A stretch of DNA of 64,000 nucleotides from a virus (taxonomy: Duplodnaviria; Caudoviricetes), in IMG/VR virus record IMGVR_UViG_3300017754_001906, positions 1,366 to 65,365 of that record; one strand, 5' to 3'. Positions 4,109 through 64,000 of this stretch are shown here, piece after piece. The number at the start of each line of letters is the position of its first letter. Positions within the stretch are counted from its first letter, which is position 1. The notes beneath the pieces are model-generated. The model was given only the letters and a program-made list of their open reading frames with translations, did not search any database and was not told where the DNA came from. A program made the position numbers and the translations under genes.

Positions 4109-4118
4109 TCTTGGTTTG

Positions 4119-4148
4119 TTGACACATGTCAACGCTGTGGGGTATAGT
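4119..4148 (+). promoter_or_regulatory. sigma70-type promoter upstream of terminase; -35 lies within a palindrome
   Basis: TTGACA-18 bp-TATAGT; GTTGACA-CA-TGTCAAC inverted repeat at 4118-4133. Confidence 0.55.
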
Positions 4149-4229
4149 TTGGGTGCTCTTCATGAGCAAATCTCCAGGGACTGCGCAGGGTAATAGCTGC
4201 GTGGTCTTTTTTTATGGAATGGTAGCTGG

Positions 4230-7037: not shown

Positions 7038-7069
7038 TCAATCGAAGGTTAGAACCTGGAGGATGCAAG

Positions 7070-7264
7070 ATGTTTGAAGAGTTGATCGAGAAGTGCGAAA
7101 AATCAATGGCAAAGTGTTTTGATCATGTGTCAGCGCACCCTGATTCGCAAAAGGGGCTGCATTACTCACAGGCGGCATTGAATTTGACGCACGCAAGGGT
7201 TAACCTTGAGGCAATGAAGTCTAGCACGGCTCCAAAAGCATCTTCTGCAAAGAAGACTGATTAG
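7070..7264 (+). CDS. hypothetical protein
   Basis: 64-aa ORF with GGAGG RBS between terminase and portal. Confidence 0.65.
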   Translation: MFEELIEKCEKSMAKCFDHVSAHPDSQKGLHYSQAALNLTHARVNLEAMKSSTAPKASSAKKTD

Positions 7265-7346
7265 CGAAAAATCGTTGGATTACTAGGCTGGAGTTAGAAC
7301 CCAGTCGAAATTGATCGGAAAATATCCGTTTTTATTTCGGCTGTGG

Positions 7347-34300: not shown

Positions 34301-37300
34301 AAGCCCGCTCCGCAGGCACCGAGTCAGCAGGTTGCTCCTGTCGTGCCATCACAAGAAGTGTCCTCAGCTGTTGAAGAGCCATCGACGGCAAAGCCCAAGT
34401 CGGAACCAGCGAAGGTTGAGGGAGAAGAACAGAAGAAGCCTCTCAGCCAGCCGGTAGCGGATGAAGCAGGCACTAAGAAGCCAAAGTCGTCAGCGAAGCA
34501 AATGACTCCAAGAAGCTACTTGGAGAGCAAAACTGATCGTCAGCTAAAAACACTGGCAAAAGACTTAGGATTGAAAGCTGACAGCCGCGAGGGCGTTATT
34601 GAATCGCTTTTGCAGAACCCTGATGTTGTCGATTCGCTGAACAGCGCTCTGCAGAAAGCAAAGCCTTCAAAGCCTCGCAAGAAAAAGCCTGCTCCAGCTA
34701 AAGATGCTGCAAAAGGCAAAGAGCCTATACCAGTGAAGATGAGATCTTCGATGGGTACGACTAGAGAGTTGTTGCCGAGCGAGCTAACAGCGGCTGAGAA
34801 GAAGCAGAAAAGCATTCTCGAGAAAATGGGAGTCACTCTGCGATTGATTGAAGGAGGTAGCTTCAATACACCTGGGGCTTTCAATCCTGAGTCTATGACT
34901 GTTTGGCTCGATCGGTCTTACATAGAGCACATGGATTCCTTGTGGCAAAAGCAAGGTCGTCCTCCAGAGTCAATGACGTGGGGGTTGTTTTTGCATGAGA
35001 TGTTCCATGCGATAAAGAAGATTGACCCAGAGGCATGGAATGGTCTGCGTGATTGGATCAATGCGAATCCTAATGAAAAAGAACTACTGGACAAGGCAAC
35101 GAGCGATTACGTTCGTGATTCAATTAACGCGCTAAAAGAAAGACTCTCGAAAGATTCCAGGAACTCAGGAAAAACAGTCAATATCAAGGGAAGGCTTTCA
35201 ACAGCAGACCATGTCAGGTCGGCTATAAAAGCAGCGAAAGCCGCTGGTGTTGAAATCAGCGACGGCACAATAGCTGCTGCCGAATACACTATTAAAGTGC
35301 TTAGCAACGAGGACGTGAGGAACGAAGAAGGGCTCTCAAGGTATTTGGAAGACAAGGCTGGAGACTTCGATTTTTGGGACGATCTTGGAAACGACAATCC
35401 GAGCTTATTGGCAAAGATCGGTCGCTGGTTGCTCAGGGCGTTGCGACTTGCCGATTCAGATACTCTCGCTGGGCAGACGCGAGCTGCTATCGAGAAGGCG
35501 ATGAAGCGAAACAGTCTTGCAACTGGAGAAGATCTAGGGATTCGTGCTGCTGTAAGCAAGGGTGATTTCTCTGTAGGCGACATCAATGTCGATGAAGTCA
35601 GAGCGAAGGACAGGAAGGGCAACCGCGTATCAAAAGGTCTCGCTGTAAAATCCGTAAAAGGCACAAAGGTTTACGAGGAGACAGACGATCTGTCATTCGA
35701 TTACGTCAAGAAAAACGCTCCAGATGTGTTTATTAAGAACGCCAACACGATTGCTGATTACCCATTAGTGCGTGGAAAGAGGGTGTTTGAAAAGGCTCGC
35801 ACAGTAGAACAGGCACAAGAGATATACGATGTGTTCGTCAGGGAGGTAGCCGACAACCTAAACTACCTATATTCAGAGTACGACAGTGAATTTAGAATGC
35901 CATCTACTCTCTGGTATGACGGCGCAAACGCGATAGCTAACAGGCTGGCTGATGATTACAAAGTATCTCCAGAGCAGGTGGCTGGAATTATTGCTGCCAT
36001 GTCTCCGCAAAAAGACTGGTATCAGAATGTAAGACTTGCCGAACTGCTGCTTGAAGCGTTCAGGGTCAACCCGGTGATGACTCCGGAAATGATTGCCCAT
36101 CAGAGGGACGTAGTTAGGGTTGATGGTCTCAAAGGATACAGCAGGAAGGTTAGACTTGCTGAGAGTGCGCTCGCTAAAGCAAACCTCGAGTATAAGGGAA
36201 CCACGCTAGAAAATTATCGCAAGATTGAATCGGTGCTTTCTTCTGGGGCATTTCTGCAAGAAGGTGGTAAGACCTCTTCCGAGTTGCAGAAGCTTGCCTC
36301 ACAAGCAGGTGTTGGTTTCGCAAAAGCGACTGGACAGTTAAAGTCAAAAATGAGCCCAGACGAAAAGGCGTCTCTGCAAAAAATAGCGAATTGGGCTATC
36401 ACGATTTTTAAGGAAGGTGCAGCAGCATCTCCTGGAGAGTCGCTTTCTGACAGTGATCTGAAGAAATTGGTTAGCGAGCATCGCAGGGAAGTTAAATCCG
36501 CAATTGATGACAGTGCAGCGTCGTTAGTGGCTGCTAAAGCCAAGCTGGCTAAGTCTACAACAAAAGCCGATGCCGTAGTGAGCAAACTCGAAAGCCATTT
36601 AGGCAAAACTCTTGACAGTGTTCCAGAAGAAATCCAGTCCTTCATGGTAAGGTTGTATCATGAGGTAAACACGACCAAGGACTACAACGTAATTGCTCCC
36701 GACGGACGTGCTGTAGGCGTAGCTAAAAATGATAACGGAGAGAACGCGAGACTAGCGTGGGGATCCTATGGAGAGATTGGGAAGGGCGTTTCGATTAGGA
36801 ACAATGGAAGCCCAAGAAATATTACGAGGCGACTAGGGCAGCAGCACAAGATCCGAAACTTTTACAACAACATCATTGATCCGATGAGCGAGGATGGTGA
36901 TGTGACGATGGATACCCATGCGATTGCAGCAGCACTGCTGATGCCTTTGTCGGGGAAGTCGACCCAGGTCACTCAGAACTTCGGTGGCAGCGGGGCTAAA
37001 AACGCGGGAGCTTTTGGAATCAAGGGGCTATACTATGCGTTTGCTGAAGCATATAATGTATCCGCAAAAGAAAACGGATTGCTGCCAAGGCAGATGCAGA
37101 GCGCGACTTGGGATCCAGTTCGCGGCTTGTTCACGGACGTGTTTAAGAGCGTCAAGAAGAACGTAACAAAAGTCAACGATATTTGGGAAAGTTACGCAGA
37201 TGGCAAAATATCAGTCGAAGAAGCAAGAGAACAAGTCTTTGAAGCAGCCGGTGGAATCGACACTCCCACCTGGGCCAGACCCGCTCGAGAAGATGTTGGA

Positions 37301-40300
37301 GGATCTGTACGGAAGAAACGTGACAGAGGACGAGTACGAGGAGATGGACAGGCTTCTGTCGGGGCTACCGATGGAGGAGGAGATGGAGGACGAAGATACT
37401 CTCCAGGACGAAGCGGACGAGACGCAACCGTTGCCGTCCGGGGAAGTCTCGGCGTTGATGAAAGAGTTTGGAGTCGATCGACAGACAGCCGAAAAGTGGG
37501 CGGATATGATCTAACTGCTAGGTATGTAGCTGACGTTGCAGAATGGGCGGAATCTGGCGTCAGTGCTCCAGCCTTTATTGAGCTAAAAGCATCGGATAAA
37601 TCGGCGAGGCAATTTTCCGAAGCGATTACTTCGGCACGCGAAAGCCAAGGAAAGCTAGGGGCGTCAGTTTATGTTTATCCCGACCAAGACTACCGGGATA
37701 TGCGGCTGTTTCTGACGGAGGACGGCAAGGCTGGGTTTGCGTTGAAGGCGACCGACGACCCCAGTATTACGGATATCGTATCGGTGTTTAATACGGCTGG
37801 TAGCCTTCATCGCGGCGTAAGTTACGCGATGATACGACTGGCGGTCGAAGAGGGCGGTAATACGCTTGATGCGTTCGACACATTCCTGCCGGTGGTTTAT
37901 TCAGCAAACGGATTCCGAGCGATTTCCCGCATTAAGTGGGACGACGACTTCGCTATGGAAGGCTGGGACAAGAAAGCTTATTCGGATTTCAATAATGGTG
38001 AGCCGGACATCGTCTTCATGGCGTATGATCCGCAGCAAACAGAGATCTATCGCGTTGACAGCAGAGAAGGTGACGTATTTGATACGTACGACGAAGCCGT
38101 CGCATCACAACGATTGGTGGCGAAGAAGAATTACCTGGAGTTACAAGAAAGGAAAAAGCAGAATGCCAAAGCAAAGCAAGGTGGAAAACGATATTCGCCT
38201 GGACGACGACCCGAATCGACCGGAGACGGAAGAGGACGAAAAGGCATTGGGAAGACGGAGGCTCTTGCAGGCTCGCCATCGGTCCCAGGCATTAACGGGC
38301 CGGATCCCGAGGTCGTTGCGGTTGCCGAGCGATACGCCAAAGAGTATGGGATCGATCTCAAGCGACAAGCCGAATACGTCCAAGTAGACGAGGATCGGGC
38401 AAGAAGGATAGCCGATGCGTATGCGCAGATGCCGCATGATCCGCAGGATCCTAAGGTCAAAGAGGCGTACCAAGAGCTTATTAAGCAAACCACGGATCAG
38501 TACAGGGCGTTAGAGGACGCTGGATATAAGTTCTGGTTTATGGATCTAGGGATTCCTAGCAACCTCGAGTACGCATCGAGCCCGTATAATGCTTTGCGAG
38601 ATTTGCGAAGTAATAAGCAGATGGGTGTATTCCCGACAACAGACGGCTTCGGGACAAGCGACCTTGATGTAAACGACAATCCTCTGCTTGCGGATACAGG
38701 AATTTTGTGGGCGTCAGGAGGGCTAGATGGGGAAATGAAGCCCGTCTTGGCTAACGATCTGTTTCGGGCTGTTCATGACGCTTTTGGACACAGCCTAGAA
38801 GGTGCAGGGTTTAGAGCGAGGGGTGAAGAAAATGCTTGGCAGGCGCATGTGCGTTTGTTTTACGGGTCAGCAGTAGGTGCTATCACTAGCGAGACCCGTG
38901 GGCAGAACTCTTGGTTGAATTACGGACCTCACGGAGAAGCGAACCGTAATGCAAAAGTCGAAGACACGATTTTTGCGGACCAGAAAACCGGCTTGATGCC
39001 CGAGTGGACGTGGACCGAGGGTCGTGCTGCAGACATGGAAGATGTTGGCGATGCCGACATGAATGGTCCTGATCTGGAGTCTGGACTGCAATATGCAGTT
39101 GCAAGACCGCAGTTGGCTAAGAAGCTCAACTCTGGGAAGAAGGTTAAGCTGTACCGTGCGATGCTCCTAATTGACGGAAAGCTTTATCCTCCCATGTCGT
39201 CTCGAAGCAAGAGCGACGAAGGCAGGCTAGCTATGCGTCCAGGAGAACCTATTGGTCAGTGGATGCAATCGGAGGAGAGACCGGAACTCGTTCCCAAGAC
39301 AGGAAAGAACGCAGGGAAGTTTCCTCTGCAAAAGCCAAAAGGTGTTACGTGGGCTGCTTATGCTCCGTACTTCCATGCGTCTCCTATGCCTCTTAATGAT
39401 CAGTTTACGGCATCATGGCTCAACGATGGTATTAGACGACCACGCATGGTGATCGTCGAGGTTGAAGTCCCAGAAAGCGAAATGACGAGCGGCTATCAAG
39501 CCGAGGGATCAAGCAAGAAGGTGGGTTCGAATAAGTGGAGGGCTGGCGTTGTTGCTTCCAAGCTTCCAGGCGGCAGGGAGGTTGTTCTCTCCAGGTACTT
39601 GCGTATCAAGCGAATAGTCCCAGATGCTGAAGTGGCGAAGAAGATCGCCGACATTGTTAATCCGGCGAGGCTTTCTGTACCAGAGAACGTTATTACGCCA
39701 CAGCTACGTGCAGAGCTTGAGAAAAATGGAGTTCGCATTTCTGCAAAGGGTACGAAGGGCGAAGGAATCCGCTATTCTCCCGGTCGCCGCGTAGACGAAA
39801 AGTATCTTGCTGCGGTCAAGGACGGTGACAAGAAGCTTGCGCAGAGATTGGTGAACAAGGCTGCTCAGAAAGCAGGAGAGTTTGCTGGCGGTGTTTCTCC
39901 GGTGGTTTATCACGGAAGTCCGCATGCTGCGTTTTACAAGTTCCAGATTCCTAGCAAGGGTTTCAATAGCACGGTATTTGGATCTTACGAGGTAAGCAGG
40001 AATGCTGCGTTCTTCACTCCAGATAAGACCGCTGCCTCCAATTACCAGACCCAAGGTGGTCGCACAAGCGGCAGCACTCGCAAGTTTAGGATCTTTGGCG
40101 AGATGCTGGACTGGAGAAACGGCATATCAGACGCTCAGTTCAATACGCTTGTTGATAACGGCGTGAACTCGAGATGGCTAGGTCAGAAGGGTGCTTCTTG
40201 GGAGTTGTTCGATAAAGAGCAGGATCCTGAAGGTACTCTTGTAAAAGCCATCAAGAAGATGGGGTACGATGGGGTGATTATCCGCGACACGGATGGAGAA

Positions 40301-43300
40301 AATGATTTTGATGCTTACGTTGCGTTCTCTCCTTCTCAAATCAAATCTTCAGATCCCGTCACTTACGATGACGCCGGAAACGTCATTCCGTTGAGCAAGC
40401 GGTTTGACGACCTCCAGAGCGATGTGCGTTATTCCCCAGGTCGCAAGAAAGATGCCATTCTTGCAGCGTTGTACAAGCAGCTGGAAGAGAAAGGTGCGAT
40501 CAAGCCGAAGGCGGCAGGAGATAGAACAACTAGCATCAAGAACCGCAAGACCGACGAATTGCGAGCAGAGTCTGGGTTCCCTCCGAGAGTGCGTCCATCC
40601 AGCGAGTCTTTTGAAGAATGGGAGGAGCGAGCTCGACAACAGTACCCAACTGCAAAGGATCGCCTGAAGCTCATAGCAGAGGCGGAACGCTATCCAGAGA
40701 AAATTGGCAAGATAGAGAGCGCAGCGATTGGGCAGCACATTACATATCTCGACAATCAGCGAATCGCTGGGAAGAATGTCGTAGATGAACTGCGAAGAAC
40801 AATCAAGGTTGCCAATACTGTTGGAACCGAAGCGGGTCGTGCATTGGTTAGTCGCAAGGTTGAGAGATATGGCGACTTCTCTTTGGCTGGTCTTATCAGC
40901 GAACACATGCGAGTTGCTGGCACCGATCCCACCGACAGTCAGATTCAGGATTACGCTGAACTTGCCGATCGCATTAAGCAATTGGAAGCAGACAAGGTGG
41001 AGCTAGCGGAAAAGCTTGCTAAGGAAACCATAGCGAGGATAAAGGCGGAAGCAGAAGCGAAGCCAGCAATTGAGCCGACAAAGCCGAAAAAAGGCACCAA
41101 GCGAGCTGCATTGCTTAAGAAAGTTGCTGACAGCTTTGCAGCGTTTCAGAACGCATGGGGACAAGAAAGATTCTCTGTAGGCAGAACTCCAGCATTGGAA
41201 GCCATTGCTGACTTTGGGTTTGGAACTGAAACACTTCCGGATCCTGCAACGGTGTCTCGCAGTGAATGGTTGCGAGCGTACATGCCTCTAGTAATGCAGG
41301 GGGTTCCTGACGCAGACATCAGCGAAAAGGACATGAATGTGTTGGCGTCTGCTTTTGGCGACGACAATCCATTCGCTCCAGATAGCAAGCTGATGAAGAT
41401 GCTTGGCAAATGGGCTATCCAGTCTGATTTGCATGAGGCAAACTGGGGGGATGGAGTGCGTGTTCTTTTCGAAGATAAGTCTCCAGCAACTCGCATGATG
41501 TTAGAGCAGATTTCTAAAGAGTCTGGGGTGAGTGCAAATCGAGACGACTTCTATGATCCAGCGGATTACAAGTCGCTTGCTAAGGCTTTTGTGAAGTATC
41601 TTCCGAAGCACCTCGCAAAGAAACCGGAAGGTTATTCGTATGGCTATTCGGACACGAAGCGATTGCTCGAGACATCTAAGGCGCTGCTAGATCCGCTCGA
41701 GTACGCCATCAACGTATGGGAGGGGTCACAGCAAGCCGCATCTGTCGATGTAAATCCTGACATTCGATACTCTCCAGGAAGACAAGATGACGCCGCACAA
41801 ACTGCTGCAGCTAATCTGGTCAAGTTGCTTCGCGAGATGGGCGTTAGTTCTACGCTTGAGTTTGAGCTTCAGATCAAGGCGAACTTGAAGAACGCTTCAC
41901 CAGAGCAGATGCAGGCTTTGATGGATGCGTGGAACGCAAGTAGTGAAAAAACGGATGTGGTGTCTCCTTTAGGCGATGATCCTGACAACGCTGACATCGG
42001 CGCTAGAGCTAAGGAGTTGATGAGACTGGCTATCGAAGCTGGATATGGTGCTAATCCTGAAACGTGGATGGAGGTTGTTGATGTAGTTCATGAACAACTT
42101 TCGCTCGATGTTCCAGGTATCGATAAATACGACACCATGCAAGCCATGAGTGACTATGGCGTCTGGCGGAAGCTTTCTGGAGAAGAAGTCGCAGTCAAGA
42201 CTCGGGCTATTCGCGGCAAGGCAAGGCAATCATTAAAAATAGAGGACACGCTAAAGGCGATTGCACAAAGCGAAGCATGGCTGAAGGATGGCGTAAGCCC
42301 GGAGGAGGTAGCACGTCGTTTGAGAGAGAAGAATCTTCTTCCGAAAGCAACTGGTAGGGAGCAGGCGACTCCCGACAGCATTGAGCGAGAGCTAATTGCG
42401 GAGTTCAACAAGCTGAAGAAAACATTGCCAGTTCCTGCTGAATCTCGAGAGGGGCAGTTGAAGTCGGCTTTGAGTACGGCAAAGACCTCCGCGAAGAATA
42501 GGCTAGAGATGCTCGACAACGACATCTCGGCATTAGAGGATGCGGTCAAAAACAGAAAAGAGCTCGTCAAGCCAGTTGCTGAGAAAACTCGTCTGGAGCC
42601 GGATGCAGAGCTTGAAGACCTTCGCAGCCAGCTAGACGCAAAGCGGCGGCAGCGGGATGAATTGAAAGCCGCGTACAGCGAGATATTCCCGTCTGCCAAA
42701 GCAAAGCGAGGGCGAAAGCCACTTACTGATGAACAGCGGCTAGAGGCATCTATGAAGCTGCTTGCCCGTCAGATTGACGCAGTGAAGGCGGACATACAGG
42801 CGTTAAACAGCGGGTCATGGGCGCCTGCGGCAAAGAACGCTGAGCTTACATCTGCAAGGAAGGAGCAGCTGAAGTCGGATCTGGCATCGCTACGAGAAAC
42901 CCAGAAGAGGGCGAGAAAAGCAAGTCCTTTGTATCAGGCTCTTCAGGAGACGAAATACTGGGAAAGGTATCGGAAGACCCAGGAGAAGCGACTGGCGTTT
43001 TGGGAGAATCGCCGCGACGAAGCAAAAGCCGGAAGACTCCCTGTGCCACTGCAGAAGCGTACTATTGTTGAGAAGGACATCCTCGAGAAAAACCTGGAGA
43101 TCGAGGAAAAGAAATATGAGGCAATGATCGCGATCGAGAAGGCTACTCGAGCAAACTGGAACGCTGGGCAGTGGATAGGGCAAGGCTTGCTTGAGGCTAC
43201 GTCACTGATACCTAAGACGTTGATGCTTGGGCTCGAGATGTCATTTGTACTGCGACAAGGATTTTTCTACACCTACTCGCAGCCGATGAAGGCTTTCCGT

Positions 43301-44854
43301 GCGCTAACCGAAGCCATGCCAGCAGTGTTTAGTCAGCGACTTGCACTGGCATCTATGGAGAGCATCGAGAATAGACCAAACGCCGATGAGTACCTTGATG
43401 CGAAGGTGGACTTTACAAAAGCAACCGGTCCGCAAGCAAAACTAGAGGAGTTGTACCAGTCGGCTGTTATTCAATGGCTCGAGAGAACAGAGACAAAGCT
43501 TTTGCTGCCTTTAAGAGCGTGGGCAAAGGTTTATCAGATGTTTGAGCGTGGCAACAGAACGTTCTCGAACATCATGAAAGCCGACATGTACGATATCCAA
43601 AAGCGGGATACACTGGCTGCGCGTGAGTTCTTCGGATTGAGTACTGAATGGACAAATAATGACATCAAGGAAACCGGACGAATAACGAACATCTTCAGCG
43701 GAAGAGGCACTGGAATAAAAGGCGGAAGCCCGTGGCTTGATTGGCTGTTCCTAGCTAGACGCTGGACGTGGTCGCGAATCCAGGCAGACTTCATTGTTCC
43801 TTTCCAGCTCGTTACTCCAGAATGGATCGGTCAGTGGAACGCGGATCGCGGAATGCGAGTGGCGTTGGCTAAGTTGTACATTCAATCTTTGGTTGGTCAT
43901 GCAGCGAAAATGGCTGCAGCTTACTTTGCGTATTCCGTTTTGGCGGGAGACGACGAAGAGAAGAAACCAACAATGGAGTTTGATTTGCGATCTAGCGATG
44001 CATTGGCACTCAAGGTCGGCGAGACGAGATTCAAAGACGAAGGCGGTATGATGCCAGCCATCGTTTTGGCTGCAAGGATTGCAACCGGCAAGATCAAAAC
44101 TGGCAAAGGGGAGATCAAGTCGATTTATGGAGAGGACGTTCAGCACGGAGGAAAAACCGCTGCCGACTTCTTGATCAATTACGGTCGGTACAAGCTAGGC
44201 ACAGCGCCATCTGCGATACTCGAATGGATTTCTGGCAGAGATGCGGTTGGTACGGTTATAGAGGACAAGGACGATCCGACAGCAATATACAGAAATATAG
44301 CTTCCAGCCGATTAACTCCGCTGACGTACCGAGAAATATATGCGGCAGAAAGCGAGCTTGGTCTTAAGAGAGGCACGCTGGCTGCACTCGAAGCGTTTTT
44401 TGGTGTTTCCGTTTCAACGCATGGTGACCGTACCAAGTACAAGAAGGGTAGCGAGGCAGATCGCAAGAAGCAATTCGACAACGATCTGAAGGCTATGCAA
44501 TGGAATAGTCCAGATCCCGCCTACAGCGACTTGCTTTCCAGCGAACAGATGGAGGGGGTTAGCAAGAGAAGAGAGGCAAAACGGCAGGGGCTTATCTTCG
44601 CAGCTGGAGCGAATCCCCAGAGGAAGGATTACAAAAACGCTGAGAATTATGACAAAGCCGTTGCGGAGAGAGATAAGGCGAGACAGGAAATGGCTGAATC
44701 TGGCATAACGCTTCCTGAAGCTCGATCGCTCCTCATTGAGTATTACAAGGATAACTATGGATCAGCCTACGAATTGAAGGGTGGATCCTACGTTATGAAG
44801 GGCTCAGCAGTTGCTAGATTGCGAGAAATCAAGCGGCAATTTAGTGGTAAATAG
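31361..44854 (+). CDS. giant polyvalent internal virion protein (4497 aa; zincin MPTase-like, HhH-glycosylase-like, GNAT-like and ADP-ribosyltransferase-like domains)
   Basis: HEMFH at 34994; WYDGA...AMSPQKDW...KIRNFY...VTMDTHA; GKAGFALK...GGNTLDAFD; VYHGS...FFT...GYDGVII...DPVTYDDAGNVIPLSKRF; RYSPGR linkers. Confidence 0.8.
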   Translation: MSDVFSLFDEVENEQSNKGASTPSIDPREQEIRDRNKISAYDGNELFSLFDEVAGDREVEARRQQRAYAEKASLTDPDTYIATTKMLLTTGGRDQQLEVLRKLTPEQREAALKLAPGIAQQLGDERGGAVMRTIDAVSRGAAGVLQPVMELTGLGGTPEEIDYLRKLNSASQEFAPARPDDPWYQQGALQAAEMTPGMVMMGQGGVLGGAVGKAAGTALGRAAAAGVPGAKTAFQAAGAIGKVPAAVGLKGATTKGVFEGIGSAAGVTATSWAPQYAQEVDALKELGMQDGLVLRALAGTTAAAVGLIESIVPNPWKAGNVSFKQGAIKAARQYLWQASKNLPGEITEEGLQGVASGVGEHVAQYLDKDAKKKTIGEAFSKGWQQASDSVLPLVFMLGAPGVAGAASVAIRARREQLEQLRSKGFVSKDDAKKAGIEVGTRKEIAANVDAEIEDLKSRELIASVNESGAAAESPQASPGQAGVSVESQQENVVAPPPLPPQPQGEVPPPIPPQQQGAATPPPIPQPQEQAPPPVPPQPQEQVPPSLPPQQADQPEPQSANFDAYTNAAWKAAGKEGPVSENYKASQKQFVGSAADYGIQQGRVIAFDRKDGSSELQFAAIADELNQRGYEAGPVKKSRSNGIDNIEFSVTKKATVATPPDTTSVGMKSPDQQPVSSPVAEKDVAAPQADVTPPSKFASWTVQQGSDGKLYRVDPKAKTKYEKAKTRQPVDPAEVVVATQDQFGNPIDRKLVGVRQEFAKNAKPGAEFTWSSYPTAKFKVQSNGDILDVTTGRRMGTVQSTSNNAALKANSIKWTSLPAPAAQPATAAPQATEQPAVIATPVAKQPQVPPQPQAQEVRSRGEKTATDISKALDGLGKGAVDGLYTKVWNDAQSGQLQKMDKPPLFEQLVLRGYEKGVVRSLEDVRSITEGMTGDFEADKVVGVNNLNKLASKYQGQQPVAKQPQVQSQSKSQDQAVSVPTAKPAPQAPSQQVAPVVPSQEVSSAVEEPSTAKPKSEPAKVEGEEQKKPLSQPVADEAGTKKPKSSAKQMTPRSYLESKTDRQLKTLAKDLGLKADSREGVIESLLQNPDVVDSLNSALQKAKPSKPRKKKPAPAKDAAKGKEPIPVKMRSSMGTTRELLPSELTAAEKKQKSILEKMGVTLRLIEGGSFNTPGAFNPESMTVWLDRSYIEHMDSLWQKQGRPPESMTWGLFLHEMFHAIKKIDPEAWNGLRDWINANPNEKELLDKATSDYVRDSINALKERLSKDSRNSGKTVNIKGRLSTADHVRSAIKAAKAAGVEISDGTIAAAEYTIKVLSNEDVRNEEGLSRYLEDKAGDFDFWDDLGNDNPSLLAKIGRWLLRALRLADSDTLAGQTRAAIEKAMKRNSLATGEDLGIRAAVSKGDFSVGDINVDEVRAKDRKGNRVSKGLAVKSVKGTKVYEETDDLSFDYVKKNAPDVFIKNANTIADYPLVRGKRVFEKARTVEQAQEIYDVFVREVADNLNYLYSEYDSEFRMPSTLWYDGANAIANRLADDYKVSPEQVAGIIAAMSPQKDWYQNVRLAELLLEAFRVNPVMTPEMIAHQRDVVRVDGLKGYSRKVRLAESALAKANLEYKGTTLENYRKIESVLSSGAFLQEGGKTSSELQKLASQAGVGFAKATGQLKSKMSPDEKASLQKIANWAITIFKEGAAASPGESLSDSDLKKLVSEHRREVKSAIDDSAASLVAAKAKLAKSTTKADAVVSKLESHLGKTLDSVPEEIQSFMVRLYHEVNTTKDYNVIAPDGRAVGVAKNDNGENARLAWGSYGEIGKGVSIRNNGSPRNITRRLGQQHKIRNFYNNIIDPMSEDGDVTMDTHAIAAALLMPLSGKSTQVTQNFGGSGAKNAGAFGIKGLYYAFAEAYNVSAKENGLLPRQMQSATWDPVRGLFTDVFKSVKKNVTKVNDIWESYADGKISVEEAREQVFEAAGGIDTPTWARPAREDVGGSVRKKRDRGRVRGDGQASVGATDGGGDGGRRYSPGRSGRDATVAVRGSLGVDERVWSRSTDSRKVGGYDLTARYVADVAEWAESGVSAPAFIELKASDKSARQFSEAITSARESQGKLGASVYVYPDQDYRDMRLFLTEDGKAGFALKATDDPSITDIVSVFNTAGSLHRGVSYAMIRLAVEEGGNTLDAFDTFLPVVYSANGFRAISRIKWDDDFAMEGWDKKAYSDFNNGEPDIVFMAYDPQQTEIYRVDSREGDVFDTYDEAVASQRLVAKKNYLELQERKKQNAKAKQGGKRYSPGRRPESTGDGRGRKGIGKTEALAGSPSVPGINGPDPEVVAVAERYAKEYGIDLKRQAEYVQVDEDRARRIADAYAQMPHDPQDPKVKEAYQELIKQTTDQYRALEDAGYKFWFMDLGIPSNLEYASSPYNALRDLRSNKQMGVFPTTDGFGTSDLDVNDNPLLADTGILWASGGLDGEMKPVLANDLFRAVHDAFGHSLEGAGFRARGEENAWQAHVRLFYGSAVGAITSETRGQNSWLNYGPHGEANRNAKVEDTIFADQKTGLMPEWTWTEGRAADMEDVGDADMNGPDLESGLQYAVARPQLAKKLNSGKKVKLYRAMLLIDGKLYPPMSSRSKSDEGRLAMRPGEPIGQWMQSEERPELVPKTGKNAGKFPLQKPKGVTWAAYAPYFHASPMPLNDQFTASWLNDGIRRPRMVIVEVEVPESEMTSGYQAEGSSKKVGSNKWRAGVVASKLPGGREVVLSRYLRIKRIVPDAEVAKKIADIVNPARLSVPENVITPQLRAELEKNGVRISAKGTKGEGIRYSPGRRVDEKYLAAVKDGDKKLAQRLVNKAAQKAGEFAGGVSPVVYHGSPHAAFYKFQIPSKGFNSTVFGSYEVSRNAAFFTPDKTAASNYQTQGGRTSGSTRKFRIFGEMLDWRNGISDAQFNTLVDNGVNSRWLGQKGASWELFDKEQDPEGTLVKAIKKMGYDGVIIRDTDGENDFDAYVAFSPSQIKSSDPVTYDDAGNVIPLSKRFDDLQSDVRYSPGRKKDAILAALYKQLEEKGAIKPKAAGDRTTSIKNRKTDELRAESGFPPRVRPSSESFEEWEERARQQYPTAKDRLKLIAEAERYPEKIGKIESAAIGQHITYLDNQRIAGKNVVDELRRTIKVANTVGTEAGRALVSRKVERYGDFSLAGLISEHMRVAGTDPTDSQIQDYAELADRIKQLEADKVELAEKLAKETIARIKAEAEAKPAIEPTKPKKGTKRAALLKKVADSFAAFQNAWGQERFSVGRTPALEAIADFGFGTETLPDPATVSRSEWLRAYMPLVMQGVPDADISEKDMNVLASAFGDDNPFAPDSKLMKMLGKWAIQSDLHEANWGDGVRVLFEDKSPATRMMLEQISKESGVSANRDDFYDPADYKSLAKAFVKYLPKHLAKKPEGYSYGYSDTKRLLETSKALLDPLEYAINVWEGSQQAASVDVNPDIRYSPGRQDDAAQTAAANLVKLLREMGVSSTLEFELQIKANLKNASPEQMQALMDAWNASSEKTDVVSPLGDDPDNADIGARAKELMRLAIEAGYGANPETWMEVVDVVHEQLSLDVPGIDKYDTMQAMSDYGVWRKLSGEEVAVKTRAIRGKARQSLKIEDTLKAIAQSEAWLKDGVSPEEVARRLREKNLLPKATGREQATPDSIERELIAEFNKLKKTLPVPAESREGQLKSALSTAKTSAKNRLEMLDNDISALEDAVKNRKELVKPVAEKTRLEPDAELEDLRSQLDAKRRQRDELKAAYSEIFPSAKAKRGRKPLTDEQRLEASMKLLARQIDAVKADIQALNSGSWAPAAKNAELTSARKEQLKSDLASLRETQKRARKASPLYQALQETKYWERYRKTQEKRLAFWENRRDEAKAGRLPVPLQKRTIVEKDILEKNLEIEEKKYEAMIAIEKATRANWNAGQWIGQGLLEATSLIPKTLMLGLEMSFVLRQGFFYTYSQPMKAFRALTEAMPAVFSQRLALASMESIENRPNADEYLDAKVDFTKATGPQAKLEELYQSAVIQWLERTETKLLLPLRAWAKVYQMFERGNRTFSNIMKADMYDIQKRDTLAAREFFGLSTEWTNNDIKETGRITNIFSGRGTGIKGGSPWLDWLFLARRWTWSRIQADFIVPFQLVTPEWIGQWNADRGMRVALAKLYIQSLVGHAAKMAAAYFAYSVLAGDDEEKKPTMEFDLRSSDALALKVGETRFKDEGGMMPAIVLAARIATGKIKTGKGEIKSIYGEDVQHGGKTAADFLINYGRYKLGTAPSAILEWISGRDAVGTVIEDKDDPTAIYRNIASSRLTPLTYREIYAAESELGLKRGTLAALEAFFGVSVSTHGDRTKYKKGSEADRKKQFDNDLKAMQWNSPDPAYSDLLSSEQMEGVSKRREAKRQGLIFAAGANPQRKDYKNAENYDKAVAERDKARQEMAESGITLPEARSLLIEYYKDNYGSAYELKGGSYVMKGSAVARLREIKRQFSGK

Positions 44855-56225: not shown

Positions 56226-56681
56226 TTAAGCCATCTGCTCACTGTAAGTGAACAGGTAGGCGTCTTCATCGGTATCGCGGTAGAGATTCGGATTGATTCC
56301 TATCGCCTTGCAGTCCACGGCACGGAAGAACAACTGTGCTGGAAGGTTCGTCTCTCGCACGTCAAACACGATTTCTCTGCGTTTGATGTGATTCAGCTTC
56401 GACTTCAGCTTCGTCATCATTGCGGTGCCAACTCCAAGCCTTCTGAGATTTGGGTCTACCGCGATTGATAGCAGCTTGATGTGGTTCCTACACAGTTCGT
56501 AAACCATGTAGCCAGCGATCACGCCGTGCAACTCAGCGACCATGCCGATGCAGTTTCGTTGCCGCAGGCACTCGATGAAGTCCCGTTCGCCCCAAGGGAA
56601 CTCGAAACTCCCATGCTCGATAGCCATTACTTCGCGCATGTCGCGGCGTATTAACCAACGGATATGGATGTCACTCCTCAT
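56226..56681 (-). CDS. rimI: ribosomal-protein-alanine N-acetyltransferase (GNAT)
   Basis: HIRWLIRRDM..V.AIE..SFEFPW..DF..CLRQRNCIGMVAE, AVDP..RRLGVG, VRETNLPAQLFF, Y.DT.EDAY, matching Planctomycete RimI as I recall it. Confidence 0.85.
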   Translation of the reverse strand: MRSDIHIRWLIRRDMREVMAIEHGSFEFPWGERDFIECLRQRNCIGMVAELHGVIAGYMVYELCRNHIKLLSIAVDPNLRRLGVGTAMMTKLKSKLNHIKRREIVFDVRETNLPAQLFFRAVDCKAIGINPNLYRDTDEDAYLFTYSEQMA

Positions 56682-56850
56682 CTTTGCCCTCCGCAGCGAT
56701 CCTCAGCTCTAGTTCTTCTCGGTTGACGCTCACGTCTTTCGGCGCGTCAATCGCGAGGCGTATGGTATTGCCGATGACCTGATGCACCGTGACCCTTACG
56801 TTGTGATTGATTATAATCGACTCGCCTACTTTTCGTCGTAAAACTAACAT
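56671..56850 (-). CDS. csrA: carbon storage regulator CsrA/RsmA
   Basis: MLVLRRKVGESIIIN...VRVTV...IRLAIDAPKDVSVNREE. Confidence 0.93.
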   Translation of the reverse strand: MLVLRRKVGESIIINHNVRVTVHQVIGNTIRLAIDAPKDVSVNREELELRIAAEGKDEE

Positions 56851-58464: not shown

Positions 58465-58510
58465 CTGCGAAATTGCAGACTTTCAGGGGCTCGGGCAAAC
58501 CCCCCTCGAG
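58465..58510. repeat. intergenic repeat family 2, copy E
   Basis: ctgcgaNNNtgcagactYtcaggggc-N10-ccccctcgag; 35/46 identical to 62705-62750. Confidence 0.85.
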
Positions 58511-58522
58511 CTCGCAATCTGA

Positions 58523-58861
58523 TCAGGATGGCAATCGATAAACTGCTGAATACCAGCAAGTGCATTGCTCGTAATAATATCCAGCCTTCGTCAGTGCTTC
58601 GTCGAGCTGATCACTCAACGAGTACTGCCCGTAATCCCAATTGCAGAACTTCGCCAAGTCGCCTCCGTCATGCACCAGTATCAGCAGAGAATCGGTGCCG
58701 TACTCCTCCTTGCGAGCCTGCCATTCTTCTGGCGTCCAGAACGCTCGGCAACCACCACCGAAAGCATCTTCTCCGATAACTCGCCTTACAATCTCAGCGA
58801 CCTTGAGTGCCTCACCACTCAAGTGCTCTGTCCGAAAATCGTCTAGTCTCGTCGTGCTCAT
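58523..58861 (-). CDS. hypothetical early protein
   Basis: MSTTRLDDF...LVHDGGDL...; ATG 58861 after GGAG. Confidence 0.7.
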   Translation of the reverse strand: MSTTRLDDFRTEHLSGEALKVAEIVRRVIGEDAFGGGCRAFWTPEEWQARKEEYGTDSLLILVHDGGDLAKFCNWDYGQYSLSDQLDEALTKAGYYYEQCTCWYSAVYRLPS

Positions 58862-59768: not shown

Positions 59769-60001
59769 GATACCACCTCCGCCCATGCTCCAACGCATCC
59801 ATCTCTCCAGCACAGCTCATTCGCTGCCCATGAATCCTGCCTCCAACCCTGAATGCCAAGTGCCTTCTTGACTCGGCGAGCGATCTGCAGATCTGTTGCG
59901 GTGTCTGGCAACTCGATCTCGACTCGTCGCACCCATGCATAATTGCCTGACCAGCCACCTTCGTCAGCCCAAAGGTCCGTCATCTCTGCTCTGATCTTCA
60001 T
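59765..60001 (-). CDS. hypothetical early protein
   Basis: EMTDL...GNYAWVRR pattern; GGAG RBS; first gene after the 60048 promoter. Confidence 0.7.
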   Translation of the reverse strand: MKIRAEMTDLWADEGGWSGNYAWVRRVEIELPDTATDLQIARRVKKALGIQGWRQDSWAANELCWRDGCVGAWAEVVS

Positions 60002-60047
60002 CGCTAATCTCCAATCAATTTGTACGGAACGTAAAACCGAAGCAACC

Positions 60048-60076
60048 AATGTATCGACCACTCATGCGTGTGTCAA
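60048..60076 (-). promoter_or_regulatory. strong sigma70-type early promoter
   Basis: Minus strand TTGACA-17 bp-TACATT with an AT-rich UP-like tract (60077-60120). Confidence 0.7.
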
Positions 60077-60234
60077 TTAGGGTTTAATGGAATTTTTCTA
60101 TTTGTCACTTAAAATCTTAAAAGCCCCCCGAATACGCATCGGGAGAACCGCGCCGCACTTCGTGAGACTTTCTGATAGTAGTGCGGAAACTATCGGGAGA
60201 ACCAAGTGCTATCGCTTGAGCAGTCGAGTTCTAG

Positions 60235-61092
60235 TCATGGCAAGCCGTCATAGCCAACCCAACCCATGGCTCGAGGATCGTTGTCCTCGTAATACCCTTC
60301 GCTTTCTTTGTGCAATTCGTTGTAAAGGTCATCAAGACTCTTGTCGGTATCTGCCCAGTTTTCAGCAATCGGGTCGATGCACTTTTCTGCTGCTCTAATA
60401 ATGCGTCGAGCGGTCTTGTCGTAATCGACTACATTCTTACTGTGAACAACAAGTACTTTGATTGTTTCGCTGAAACTGGCGCACCAGTCATCTCCTGTCC
60501 ACTCGCAGTCAGTTCCGCATTCGCAAACGATGCTGTGAGCACACCAGTCGCTATCTGACATCTCTGACCCACTGCCTTCGTCTTGGCAAGGGTCGCAAAA
60601 AGTCTTGTGTCCACTGACTGTTAAAACAACACGCTTGCCCTCAACACAATCAAGCGATTTGATACCAGTGCAACCTGACGGTTCTAGATCGGCATCTTTC
60701 CATCCGAATGATACGATATCGAAACAACTGTCTAAGTTGCGACCTTCGTTCATGCTTCGAAGGACATCCCGTAGTTTTTTTAGGTCAACATCAATCGCGG
60801 CAGGTTTTTGTGCCTTTGTCTCATTGACCTTGAAATCGACCACCAACCAACCACGATAGAAATGCGTCTCTGGCGCGCACTCTGCGTGCATCTTCTCAAT
60901 AGAGGTCCAGTCGCGTTGGTAGTATCGTCTGCCTGCGCCCTGAGCTAGTTCCAGGTGGAGGTAATCTCGGACTTCCTGCGGTACCTCATCGCCTCTCAGC
61001 CACTTGCCTCGCCCTCGTCGTCGTGCGCCGAAGAACATGATCCCGCCGATGCTGTTTCGAAACCTTGCTTGCCATCGTCTTTCGGTCTTCAT
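60235..61092 (-). CDS. hypothetical early protein
   Basis: 285 aa; AGGAG RBS. Confidence 0.65.
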   Translation of the reverse strand: MKTERRWQARFRNSIGGIMFFGARRRGRGKWLRGDEVPQEVRDYLHLELAQGAGRRYYQRDWTSIEKMHAECAPETHFYRGWLVVDFKVNETKAQKPAAIDVDLKKLRDVLRSMNEGRNLDSCFDIVSFGWKDADLEPSGCTGIKSLDCVEGKRVVLTVSGHKTFCDPCQDEGSGSEMSDSDWCAHSIVCECGTDCEWTGDDWCASFSETIKVLVVHSKNVVDYDKTARRIIRAAEKCIDPIAENWADTDKSLDDLYNELHKESEGYYEDNDPRAMGWVGYDGLP

Positions 61093-61164
61093 CTATTCAC
61101 TCCTGTGCCGTATGGGCTCGGCTTGCCACCACGAAGATTGCGTCATGGTTCACATCCACAAACT

Positions 61165-61213
61165 GGGGACGCGAGCCCTAAGACTCGCCGCACTAGCCCT
61201 AACCCCTGCTAGT
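61165..61213. repeat. structured intergenic repeat family 1, copy A
   Basis: GGGGAC-GCGAG[8]CTCGC-CGC-ACTAGC[CCTAACCCCT]GCTAGT. Confidence 0.9.
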
Positions 61214-61681
61214 AACCTTGACTTTCTTTACCTTGCCCTGCTTCGTAAGGGTTGCTTGGTACTCCATTGCCGTCACCAGTCGTTCGGCAATAATCGATTC
61301 CGACTCAAGCTTTCTGACTGTGTCCCCGTGGAAATGATGTGCATGCAGTTTTCCATGTTTTGTGTTGATTACGAGGATGACTGTTGGGAGTTCGTACGGA
61401 ACGCCGTTTGAGGATCCAACCTGAACTCCAGTCGACACCTCTAAGACCTTGGCTTTTGAGTACCCTGTGAGTCGCACCCAATCGCCGATCACAATTGACT
61501 CCACGGGAACCTCAAAAAGCGAGAGATAGAAGCGATTTGCCTCACCTCCACGCTTGGTGAACCGCCGACCGGCGCCGCCACACTTAAAACACTTCGTCCC
61601 GTACATTGTGCAGTACGAATACTCGCCGGATCCACCGCAGCGACTGCATGTCTCAACTTCAAAACCGTGCGCGTCAAACAT
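61199..61681 (-). CDS. protein with DnaJ-type CxxCxGxG Zn-finger N-terminus
   Basis: CSRCGGSG...CFKCGGAG; GGAG RBS. Confidence 0.75.
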   Translation of the reverse strand: MFDAHGFEVETCSRCGGSGEYSYCTMYGTKCFKCGGAGRRFTKRGGEANRFYLSLFEVPVESIVIGDWVRLTGYSKAKVLEVSTGVQVGSSNGVPYELPTVILVINTKHGKLHAHHFHGDTVRKLESESIIAERLVTAMEYQATLTKQGKVKKVKVTSRG

Positions 61682-61704
61682 TTCGCAATCTCCTATGTTG
61701 TGTG

Positions 61705-62091
61705 TTAGTTATAGTTTCCACGTTCTACTAGATCGCCCCAGCAACCGAGCCGGAAACGCCCGTTGACGTACAGCAACGTCAGGTCGTACGTGTCGCCGGT
61801 GTTTAGGTACGTGATCTCAGGCGATCGCTCGCCATTCGCTGCGATGTGCTCTACACCGAAAGTGCCGAGATCGACAAATACCGATTCTACGTTAAGGAGG
61901 GTATCGCGAACCAAGAACGATTCGTGGCAATGACGATACTCTCCAGTTGCCTCGAGTTTCTTGCGCACTACAGAACAGAATCGGTGCGCGCGGTTCAGGT
62001 ACATACGTCGATTTTCCACGCCGCCCTCGTACGTTTTTGTACCCTGTTTTCGAGGCTTTAGCCTGGAAAGCCTAACGATTGGACAATGCAT
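61705..62091 (-). CDS. hypothetical early protein
   Basis: ATG 62091 after AGGAG; YLNTGDTYDLTL...F.LGCWGD motif. Confidence 0.7.
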   Translation of the reverse strand: MHCPIVRLSRLKPRKQGTKTYEGGVENRRMYLNRAHRFCSVVRKKLEATGEYRHCHESFLVRDTLLNVESVFVDLGTFGVEHIAANGERSPEITYLNTGDTYDLTLLYVNGRFRLGCWGDLVERGNYN

Positions 62092-62112
62092 CTTCAATCT
62101 CCTGTTGTTTTC

Positions 62113-62133
62113 GCCCCGTCTCACTGGGGCTGG
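62113..62133. repeat. hairpin repeat family 3, copy 1
   Basis: GCCCC-gtctcact-GGGGC-tgg; second copy at 62680-62700. Confidence 0.8.
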
Positions 62134-62156
62134 TTCCGTTGTGACACTGTGTCAGC

Positions 62157-62207
62157 GGGGACGCAGGGGGGAAACCCCCTGCCGCACTAGACCTAACCCC
62201 TTCTAGT
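62157..62207. repeat. structured intergenic repeat family 1, copy B
   Basis: GGGGAC-GCAGGGGG[GAAA]CCCCCTGC-CGC-ACTAGA[CCTAACCCCT]TCTAGT. Confidence 0.9.
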
Positions 62208-62661
62208 CGCGATCTACGAGCGCCTGTACCCATTCCTGCGAGTAGCCGTATCGTCCCGCTTGCTCGCGAGCTTGCGTCACCTGCCCGTTTTCAACGGAAG
62301 CTCTCACAATTTCAGCGTGCTCGTACTCCGCCGCTCTTTCGTCGTCGCCGACTTCAAGGTTTCCGTTGGCGATATCAATCCTCATCGCATCGATATCATG
62401 ATTGTCGTCATCGTGTTTCGCGAGCCATTCTTCTCGCTCGCAATCGGTGCAGGTGCCTTCTTCGATGTTTTCGCCACCGCAATCTATGCAAACCTCTTCG
62501 TCGAATCTTGGGGAGAGTTCGTTCGCGTCGAGCATTTCGCGAACATCGTCATTGCTCATGTACTTGAGTGCGCAGAGCAGCAGGTAATCAGCGGAAACCA
62601 CTTGGTTTTCTACCAAATTGATCGCGAAACTGCGGGGGTCGGTCTTGAAATCGTTACTCAT
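62203..62661 (-). CDS. hypothetical acidic early protein with a Zn knuckle
   Basis: CIDCGG...CTDC; ATG 62661 after AAGGAG. Confidence 0.7.
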   Translation of the reverse strand: MSNDFKTDPRSFAINLVENQVVSADYLLLCALKYMSNDDVREMLDANELSPRFDEEVCIDCGGENIEEGTCTDCEREEWLAKHDDDNHDIDAMRIDIANGNLEVGDDERAAEYEHAEIVRASVENGQVTQAREQAGRYGYSQEWVQALVDRD

Positions 62662-62679
62662 TATCAATCTCCTTGGTGT

Positions 62680-62700
62680 GCCTCGTCTCACTGAGGCTGG
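62680..62700. repeat. hairpin repeat family 3, copy 2
   Basis: GCCTC-gtctcact-GAGGC-tgg (compensatory pair change versus copy 1). Confidence 0.8.
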
Positions 62701-62704
62701 TGTT

Positions 62705-62750
62705 CTGCGACAGTGCAGACTCTCAGGGGCAGGGCGTTTGCCCCCTCGAG
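62705..62750. repeat. intergenic repeat family 2, copy D
   Basis: 35/46 identical to 58465-58510. Confidence 0.85.
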
Positions 62751-62769
62751 TGCGTACTGCCTAGGGGGT

Positions 62770-63324
62770 CTAGTACGAGCCGAATCCGTTGAAGACACCT
62801 ACGCAGTACAACGAGGCATCACTGGGGACAGGGCATCCACGGCGTGTTAACTCGGCGATGATCGCGTCAGCAATCCACTGGTTTCGATCAGCCTTGTAGT
62901 GACCGATCGCCCGTGCGCCTGTCACTCTCGCGTTGGCGAGCCACTGGAGCAAAGAATCAGTGTCGAAGCTTAGGAGCGCCTCGATCTTTGATCGCGGTTT
63001 GGTCGCTACGATTCTTCGCTTAAGCACTTTTGCGAGGCGCTTGCACACCTCGTCGTTCTCGGCTAGCCAGTCGCACTGCCAAGCGCCGCTCGCTGCTGCC
63101 CTGTTGGTCACAGTGACAAGACGGCATGTCTTGTCGGTGGAATGTGAAAACCAGGAAATCCACAACACTTCGCGGTGTGAGTGAGCGTGAGCAAATGTGA
63201 CAGCTTCTCTCAGGGTGTCGAAGGTCTTCGCCTTCCGGTCTCCCGCTCCTCCTGCGTCCATCGCACCTGCGATAAAGGATTCGTGGGCAACTTCGACACC
63301 TGCTCGATTAACGACTTTCGTCAT
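62770..63324 (-). CDS. hypothetical early protein
   Basis: ATG 63324 after GAGAGGAG. Confidence 0.65.
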   Translation of the reverse strand: MTKVVNRAGVEVAHESFIAGAMDAGGAGDRKAKTFDTLREAVTFAHAHSHREVLWISWFSHSTDKTCRLVTVTNRAAASGAWQCDWLAENDEVCKRLAKVLKRRIVATKPRSKIEALLSFDTDSLLQWLANARVTGARAIGHYKADRNQWIADAIIAELTRRGCPVPSDASLYCVGVFNGFGSY

Positions 63325-63373
63325 GTTCGGAACTCCTCTCCAGAAAAAAAATTCCAGTGACACTGTGCCACCT

Positions 63374-63427
63374 GGGGACGCTAGGGAATAAAATTCCCTA
63401 GCCGCGCTTGCCCTAACCCCTGCAAGC
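63374..63427. repeat. structured intergenic repeat family 1, copy C
   Basis: GGGGAC-GCTAGGGAAT[AAA]ATTCCCTAGC-CGC-GCTTGC[CCTAACCCCT]GCAAGC. Confidence 0.9.
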
Positions 63428-63682
63428 AACCCAACGAGGATGCAGATTCCAGTGAGAAGTCTGCAAATAAACGATTTCTACGCCACAAGAGTCGTCGACC
63501 ACTAAAACATCTTTCTTGACCAGCGATCCGATCACACCGCGAAAGATTTTCATCGGGATGCCGGTCGCCCGGGCTAGGTCACGGGTTGAAACATCTGAAT
63601 ACCCTGGCTCGTTATCAAGCAAAGGGATCAGCGTGTTTATGCAAGATCGTTCCAGTTCTGTCAGTGTTGCGATCATCCTCAA
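63413..63682 (-). CDS. winged-helix-like DNA-binding protein
   Basis: STRDLARATGIPMKIFRGVIGSLVKKDVLVVD. Confidence 0.6.
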   Translation of the reverse strand: MRMIATLTELERSCINTLIPLLDNEPGYSDVSTRDLARATGIPMKIFRGVIGSLVKKDVLVVDDSCGVEIVYLQTSHWNLHPRWVACRG

Positions 63683-63686
63683 TCTC

Positions 63687-63941
63687 CTAGATCAGTTCAA
63701 AAAGTGTTGCGGTTGCTAGGGTGAATCGCTCTCGAGCGTTTGCCACCTCGCTAGCGGTGAATCCAGCTTCTTCGGTGATACCGAGATCCAAGCAGGTGTC
63801 CGATCCGTTGGTGTAGCAAGACCACTTGCAGACCCCGTTGAGTCCCACGGCGTTATCTGGCAGGCAGACAAAGCTAGTGAGCCGTTTCGAATCAGCCTCG
63901 TTTAGATCGGCGATCGCTTCGATCTGCTCTTCGGTTCGCAT
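63687..63941 (-). CDS. hypothetical early protein
   Basis: ATG 63941 after GGAG. Confidence 0.6.
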   Translation of the reverse strand: MRTEEQIEAIADLNEADSKRLTSFVCLPDNAVGLNGVCKWSCYTNGSDTCLDLGITEEAGFTASEVANARERFTLATATLFELI

Positions 63942-64000
63942 CGTTTTCAATCTCCAAAAGGTTTTTCGTTCCCGGCAACGTTGCCGTGCATACACGGTAT

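Follow-up and report, generated by a model that had tools for sequence, protein, structure and literature searches.

The genome studied here comes from a freshwater phage and carries, near its right end, three copies of a structured element placed between genes. The DNA analysed, referred to below as the window, was a stretch of 64,000 nucleotides (nt) that spans bases 1366-65365 of a 65,365-bp IMG/VR virus record rated complete by CheckV. Among the public sequencing runs listed as containing this stretch, all were DNA runs of freshwater metagenomes and none was an RNA run. Beyond about 56 kb, and up to the right end of the window, the genes lie on the minus strand, and it is in this terminal block that the element was found, at 61165-61213 (copy A, 49 nt), 62157-62207 (copy B, 51 nt) and 63374-63427 (copy C, 54 nt), in each case on the minus strand.

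A first-pass annotation, made from the sequence alone, had placed three repeats at these positions and proposed a layout of two hairpins for them. All three copies were present, with the layout as described. They lie after the second, fourth and sixth genes counted from the contig end, 0.6-2.8 kb from that end. A blastn comparison of window positions 60000-64000 with deposited phage genomes gave no match, and searches of the small genes flanking the elements against PHROGs and Pfam gave almost none. With the latter searches nearly empty, no gene function could be linked to the elements.

Read on the minus strand, which is the sense strand of the genes, each copy consisted of 6 nt, a single nucleotide, GGGG, UUAGG, 6 nt complementary to the first six, GCG, a variable hairpin, GU and CCCC. 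The parts are named below after their counterparts in the pistol ribozyme. In copy A, the 5' strand of the pseudoknot helix occupied 61213-61208, the spacer 61207, the 5' strand of P2 (GGGG) 61206-61203 and UUAGG 61202-61198; these were followed by the 3' strand of the pseudoknot at 61197-61192, GCG at 61191-61189, P3 at 61188-61171 and the 3' strand of P2 (CCCC) at 61168-61165. The same parts in copy B were at 62207-62202, 62201, 62200-62197 and 62196-62192 for the 5' half, and at 62191-62186, 62185-62183, 62182-62163 and 62160-62157 for the 3' half. In copy C they were at 63427-63422, 63421, 63420-63417 and 63416-63412, and then at 63411-63406, 63405-63403, 63402-63380 and 63377-63374.

The variable hairpin had been given as 5, 8 and 10 bp long in the three copies. 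The two longer values were borne out (10 bp in copy C). The shortest was corrected to 7 bp when the closing G-C pairs were counted; on the sense strand the hairpin of copy A contains one U.G pair and a UUAG loop.

The 10-mer CCTAACCCCT occurred exactly three times in the window, always on the plus strand. When one mismatch was allowed there were nine matches against 1.9 expected, and the other six lacked flanking stems. The full descriptor (a 6-bp helix, 1 nt, 4 nt, UUARG, 6 nt, GCG, a hairpin, GU and 4 nt complementary to the first four) matched three times in the window and not at all in 200 dinucleotide-preserving shuffles. A covariance model of the family, run over the 65.4-kb genome, returned these three copies and no others, with 63.1 bits for copy A (model R1) and 57.7 bits for copy C.

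Folding energies did not differ significantly from those of shuffled sequences (z = -0.5 to -2.1), and copies A and B were indistinguishable from the shuffles. The support for the fold comes from covariation, not from folding energy.

Each copy overlapped the end of the gene upstream, as had been noted before. In copies A and C, the UAG within UUAGG is the stop codon (61201-61199, of the open reading frame (ORF) 61199-61681; and 63415-63413, of ORF 63413-63682). In copy B, the stop is a UAG at 62205-62203, in the 5' strand of the pseudoknot helix, and ends ORF 62203-62691. Among the copies collected, the upstream stop fell between -29 and +31 nt from the first base of the element, and in 26 of 30 copies between -5 and +12.

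Covariation in related phages and the strand of the structure

At least 47 copies of the element were collected from related freshwater phage contigs, metagenome contigs and one binned scaffold. Five more phage contigs, 61-73 kb long and apparently complete, had two to five copies apiece, always on a single strand and in a cluster of 3-4 kb, and additional viral and metagenome contigs supplied further copies. In the one relative with direct terminal repeats, the copies were 4.3-7.0 kb from the left end and pointed inward. When a loose pattern was run over prokaryote genomes and metagenome contigs, most matches were due to chance, and at least 21 true copies remained after filtering. Three other pattern matches (L056, L059 and L067) had the 6-bp helix and neither P3 nor P2, and were rejected as chance.

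Among the matches listed, the only prokaryote-genome record with true copies was a 9-kb scaffold (L123) binned into a Crocinitomicaceae metagenome-assembled genome (MAG) from Lake Mendota. Its copies were at 2551-2597 and 3496-3542 on the plus strand, one of them with the pseudoknot variant GCAGAG/CUCUGU. This scaffold is either a weak hint of the host or a mis-binned phage contig.

In a MAFFT alignment of 29 distinct copies, all 464 of the 464 cells assigned to pairs could pair, 11 of the 16 pairs had changed on both sides, and none of 500 shuffles reached the observed score. Since the filter used for this set had itself demanded pairing, the count was redone on 45 distinct sequences gathered with a covariance model that encoded only the 6-bp helix and P3, and not P2. 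In this set 99.7% of the cells paired and 14 of 16 pairs had changed on both sides. When the partners were shifted by one column, the pairing fell to about 50%. Because shuffle tests are inflated by the relatedness of the sequences, the case rests on the diversity of pair types and on this shifted-partner control.

P2, which lay outside the search model, was paired in 100% of the 45 sequences, and three of its four pairs showed compensatory changes. Its variants were GGGA/UCCC (six times), AGGG/CCCU (twice), GUGG/CCAC, GGGU/ACCC, GACC/GGUC and GGGG/CCUC. The pairing of GGGG with CCCC as a pseudoknot had been no more than a guess in the first-pass annotation; it is real, and it covaries in the relatives. 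The 6-bp helix was 99.6% paired, with changes on both sides in five of six pairs. In P3, all six counted pairs covaried. Its length ranged from 14 to 55 nt, and its loops were UUCG, GNRA or longer inserts; the 55-nt P3 of one copy was branched, which fits the known variability of pistol P3 in length. The earlier proposal of a selected RNA structure was supported.

One 29-kb contig, IMGVR_UViG_3300020049_004190, carried three ribozyme copies within 3824-8354 (minus strand), each with a different compensatory variant of P2 (GUGG/CCAC, AGGG/CCCU and GGGU/ACCC). None of them had the hairpin that follows many other copies. The contig makes a useful natural test set.

The strand on which the structure forms could be read from the pairs themselves. 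The outer pair of the 6-bp helix was G.U in 19 of the 45 distinct sequences, which is an A.C mismatch on the opposite strand, and the variable hairpin held further U.G pairs on the sense strand. The P3 loops were RNA tetraloops in 17 of 30 copies: UUCG in nine, other YNCG in three and GNRA in five. Pairing was complete on the gene-sense strand only. From the G.U pairs and the UUCG and GNRA loops on that strand, the element is a structure of the transcript and not a DNA hairpin of the template strand, in line with the RNA option of the first-pass annotation, which had read the loop on the transcribed minus strand.

That annotation had also offered a single-stranded DNA structure or a recombination site as options, and these were not supported. 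An element acting at the DNA level could be an operator, a recombination site or a hairpin promoter like those of the N4 virion polymerase. In favour of this, the three sites are all near the same genome end and each precedes a gene, which resembles the three early promoters of coliphage N4, whose virion RNA polymerase uses hairpin promoters. The genome also contains a giant ORF without an assigned function, and some of the 3' flanks are palindromic. The strand evidence speaks against all these forms: at one pair alone, 19 of the 45 sequences give an A.C mismatch on the template strand, the UUCG and GNRA loops are of RNA type, and a protein that reads duplex DNA would not select for covariation in P2. 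We regard a DNA-level role as very improbable.

The giant ORF, at 31361-44854 on the plus strand, encodes 4497 amino acids (aa), in which a DUF7178 domain and a polyvalent-protein ADP-ribosyltransferase (ART) domain were recognized. A comparison with solved structures gave no meaningful sequence match. The product may be an injected multi-domain protein. The ORF showed no polymerase domain (DUF7178 and ART only) and no match to a solved N4 polymerase; an N4-like promoter was rejected on the strand evidence.

Match to the pistol core and the missing P1 stem

Rfam at gathering thresholds gave no match over the whole window. With E-value reporting, Pistol (RF02679) was the sole notable family in the region. 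It aligned with the minus strand of copy B at model positions 23-68 (27.5 bits, E 0.021), in register with the layout described above, although the first-pass annotation had reported no match to a ribozyme. The E-values counted per genome were 1.3e-4 for copy B and 0.003 for copy A (21.5 bits), and ten matches to Pistol with 21.6-32.9 bits were obtained at related loci. The default search was empty because all scores lay under the curated cut-off, and the scores fell short because P1 and the A-rich linker between P1 and P2 are absent. Standard annotation misses such pistol variants.

In the Rfam alignment, GGGG corresponded to the 5' strand of pistol P2, UUAGG to the conserved internal loop (consensus UUAgG), and the 6 nt after it to the 3' strand of the pseudoknot. 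GCG corresponded to G40-C41-G42 of the env25 pistol, the variable hairpin to P3, GU to the 2-nt junction that forms the cleavage dinucleotide, and CCCC to the 3' strand of P2. The sequence NGGGGUUAGG had been described as an invariant loop. It is not a single loop: it is made of the 5' strand of P2 and the catalytic UUAGG, and the 6-bp stem that encloses it is the pistol pseudoknot helix. The sequence of this helix, xCUxGG/CCxAGx, resembled the Rfam pistol consensus UCUGGG/CCCAGA. Judged by this alignment, the catalytic core of pistol, a self-cleaving ribozyme, is present in the element.

In solved pistols, the active site is built by purine-32, G33, G40, C41 and G42, G40 forms a triple with G33-C41, and the G-U junction is 2 nt, strictly conserved in length (PMC6154101, PMC6101554, PMC4604425). 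These functionally important residues were kept in every copy as UUAGG...GCG...GU. The searches had required TTAGG (UUAGG) and GCG, and the invariance of these parts was partly by design. The GU junction was exactly 2 nt in all copies; here too the filters had required GU, and the covariance-model alignment agreed.

Invariant unpaired nucleotides within a covarying scaffold would also be expected of a protein-binding RNA site, at which a translational repressor, an antiterminator or a CsrA homologue of the phage reads the loop. The elements are just upstream of ribosome-binding sites, and the phage does encode a CsrA-family RNA-binding protein of 59 aa (56674-56850, minus strand; Pfam PF02599, E 7.5e-20). 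CsrA reads GGA motifs. On the other hand, GGA arises in the element only if the nucleotide after UUAGG is A, the invariant nucleotides match the pistol core position for position, and a protein that binds a hairpin leaves the covarying long-range P2 unexplained. A protein-binding site therefore seemed improbable to us.

The comparison with canonical pistols (Weinberg 2015; Harris 2015, PMC4604425; the env25 and env27 crystal structures 5K7C and 5KTJ, reviewed in PMC6154101) showed how much is shared. Both have P2 enclosing the core, the UUARG loop, a 6-bp pseudoknot helix formed with the six nucleotides after that loop, GCG, a P3 of variable length, the strict 2-nt G-U junction, an association with phage genes and a similar sequence preference in the pseudoknot. 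The pistol class and its association with phage genes are already known, and the form described here is a variant of it.

In canonical pistols, the 5' strand of the pseudoknot lies in the loop of stem P1, and a 7-nt P1-P2 linker with a conserved AAA docks into the minor groove of P1 (PMC4604425, PMC6101554). The element has neither the P1 stem nor the 7-nt linker with AAA, its P2 is 4 bp long, and it scores below the Rfam cut-off. Instead of being held in a hairpin loop, its pseudoknot 5' strand immediately precedes P2, separated by a single nucleotide that was U in 22 of the collected copies, A in 17, G in eight and C in none. The helix called the pseudoknot in pistols is thus a plain hairpin here, and P2 is the helix that crosses it.

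A displaced P1 was looked for at three places. Within 45 nt upstream there was no consistent hairpin. Between the flanks there was no closing helix (mean 4.03, against 4.14 in controls). At the 3' end there was no constant feature, the hairpin found there being present in 31 of 47 copies. The Rfam alignment began at model position 22-24 in most copies. With no constant hairpin upstream, between the flanks or 3' of the element, the module made of P1 and its linker is absent.

In formal terms, the form seen here, with a core of 45-54 nt, results if the canonical consensus loses about 12 nt, namely those that separate the pseudoknot 5' strand from the A preceding P2. Its topology is that of an H-type pseudoknot, in which the 6-bp helix is stem 1, a first loop of 1 nt crosses the 4-bp P2, and UUAGG is at the junction. 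From general pseudoknot geometry, this arrangement was judged sterically reasonable.

In the literature searched, neither a natural pistol without P1 nor a permuted pistol was described. A 2023 survey of RNA permutation named only hammerhead and twister as ribozyme classes with circular permutations (PMC10085705).

Sequences accompanying the element

A hairpin of the type CUGACA-nnn-UGUCAG followed P2 within 0-6 nt in 31 of the 47 collected copies. It was absent from the other 16, which included most of those with a variant P2, and it is therefore not a fixed part of the ribozyme. In the window it was represented by UGACA CAG UGUCA at 62142-62154 (minus strand), just 3' of copy B, where it would be close to the 5' terminus of the product released downstream, and by GGUGGCA CAG UGUCACU at 63346-63372 (minus strand), 3' of copy C and followed by GGAAUUUUUUUU. 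Possible roles of this facultative hairpin are to stack on the short P2, to shield the newly made 5' end or to be a palindromic operator in the DNA.

The hairpin after copy C was followed by eight U and resembled an intrinsic terminator. The element itself was rejected as an intrinsic terminator, P3 being followed by GUCCCC and not by a U run; only this separate hairpin after copy C has one.

The loop motif GUGAGAC recurred 3' of the ribozymes in related phages. The ribosome-binding sites 3' of the ribozymes in the relatives were often ACAGGAG, which contains the GGA recognized by CsrA proteins. Directly 5' of two ribosome-binding sites in the window there was a hairpin GCCYC-AGUGAGAC-GRGGC (62113-62130 and 62680-62697, both minus strand), and the two instances differed by a compensatory change from C-G to U-A.

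A second repeat family, CUCGAGGGGG..GCCCCUGARAGUCUGCA.U.UCGCAG, was found at 62700-62772 and 58470-58530 on the minus strand. It forms a hairpin between a G run and a C run and had no Rfam match. One of its copies fills the gap that separates the third gene from the fourth, which holds no pistol element.

Further along the block, a match to a sigma-70 type promoter (TTGACA, 17 nt, TACATT; rated good) was present at 60048-60076 on the minus strand. It lies 3' of the last gene preceded by a ribozyme and of a terminator-like hairpin with a U run, which suggests that a separate transcription unit begins there. A gene for a GNAT-family acetyltransferase (56226-56681, minus strand; Pfam PF00583, E 1.6e-13) is at the end of the minus-strand block.

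Proposed cleavage of the message

We interpreted the repeats as shortened natural pistol ribozymes without P1, which probably divide the polycistronic message of the terminal gene block. In the gene-sense RNA, the first six nucleotides pair with the six after UUAGG; this helix is the pistol pseudoknot, formed here as a local hairpin. Four nucleotides in the loop of that hairpin pair with the last four of the element to form P2. P2 brings the G-U junction, between P3 and P2, beside the conserved UUAGG and GCG. By analogy with the solved pistols, the first G of GCG is the candidate activator of the 2'-OH on the junction G, and scission is expected between this G and the U.

The predicted cuts, all on the minus strand, were between G61170 and U61169 in copy A, between G62162 and U62161 in copy B, and between G63379 and U63378 in copy C. 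Cutting would leave the upstream message with a compact structure and a 2',3'-cyclic phosphate at its end. UCCCC with a 5'-OH would open the downstream message, 54-77 nt before a start codon and in many cases with a small hairpin right after it. The next start is an ATG at 61092 for copy A (77 nt past the predicted cut), probably the ATG at 62091 preceded by AGGAG for copy B (70 nt), and an ATG at 63324 for copy C (54 nt). In the relatives the next start codon was mostly 34-72 nt past the predicted cut. Three cuts would split the transcript that covers the six or seven genes nearest this genome end into messages of one or two genes.

Several points weighed against this interpretation. Disruption of P1 in a canonical pistol caused a substantial loss of activity (PMC4604425), and P1 is absent here. 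The linker residues A19-A21, which make A-minor contacts to P1 (PMC6101554), are absent as well. A single nucleotide must bridge the 5' strand of the pseudoknot and P2, and that this is feasible was judged on general geometry. P2 is only 4 bp, and all the Rfam scores for Pistol (21.5-32.9 bits) were under the gathering cut-off of 34.5 bits. Furthermore, the UAG inside UUAGG in copies A and C exposes the ribozyme to unfolding by the terminating ribosome; cutting would have to precede translation or fall between its rounds.

A rival reading is a pistol-derived fold that has kept its shape and no longer cuts itself, and that serves as a stable structure between cistrons, for instance by holding back 3' exonucleases, by offering a site to a host RNase or by uncoupling the translation of neighbouring genes. 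The lost P1 and A-rich linker are the very module whose disruption substantially cut canonical activity (PMC4604425), its two hairpins are stable on their own, and its Rfam scores do not reach the cut-off. On the other hand, a stability element has no need of the invariant unpaired UUAGG, GCG and 2-nt GU, and the conserved parts are those that build the pistol active site (PMC6154101, PMC6101554). Neither would it explain why compensatory changes have preserved the 4-bp P2 throughout the 45 sequences. We considered an inactive fold unlikely, and self-cleaving pistols remained the preferred reading.

Two known systems offered a comparison for self-cleavage between phage genes. Clustered hammerhead ribozymes flank single prophage genes and cut polycistronic RNAs of about 2 kb in vitro (Perreault 2011, PMC3088659). 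Like the pistols proposed here, they are small self-cleaving ribozymes between phage genes, proposed to yield gene-length mRNAs. They belong to a different class, and they cut in vitro and in vivo, whereas the element described here is a predicted cutter.

The second system is that of coliphage T7, in which RNase III sites between the early genes split the message of the early region. Both systems place structured RNA in the gaps of an early operon, and the separate messages end, or here are predicted to end, in a stable hairpin. T7 depends on the host RNase III and a long double-stranded stem, whereas the element here is predicted to cut itself and to leave 2',3'-cyclic phosphate and 5'-OH ends.

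Going further, we lean slightly towards the view that a natural pistol of about 45 nt, without P1 and the A-minor linker, is fully active, and that this lineage of freshwater phages uses two to five of them to punctuate an early operon. If so, a pistol could do without P1 provided that its pseudoknot helix forms locally as a hairpin. Translation and self-cleavage would compete, as the stop codon is often in the catalytic loop.

To our knowledge, the chemistry of the pistol ribozyme is well understood and its natural role is not known. The lineage supplies dozens of natural variants of the shortened design, at sites where cutting has a predictable consequence. They raise the questions of whether P1 is needed for pistol catalysis, and whether phages use self-cleaving RNAs as T7 uses RNase III. 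If the proposal holds, the pistol class would have a natural minimal version and, for the first time, a clear biological role.

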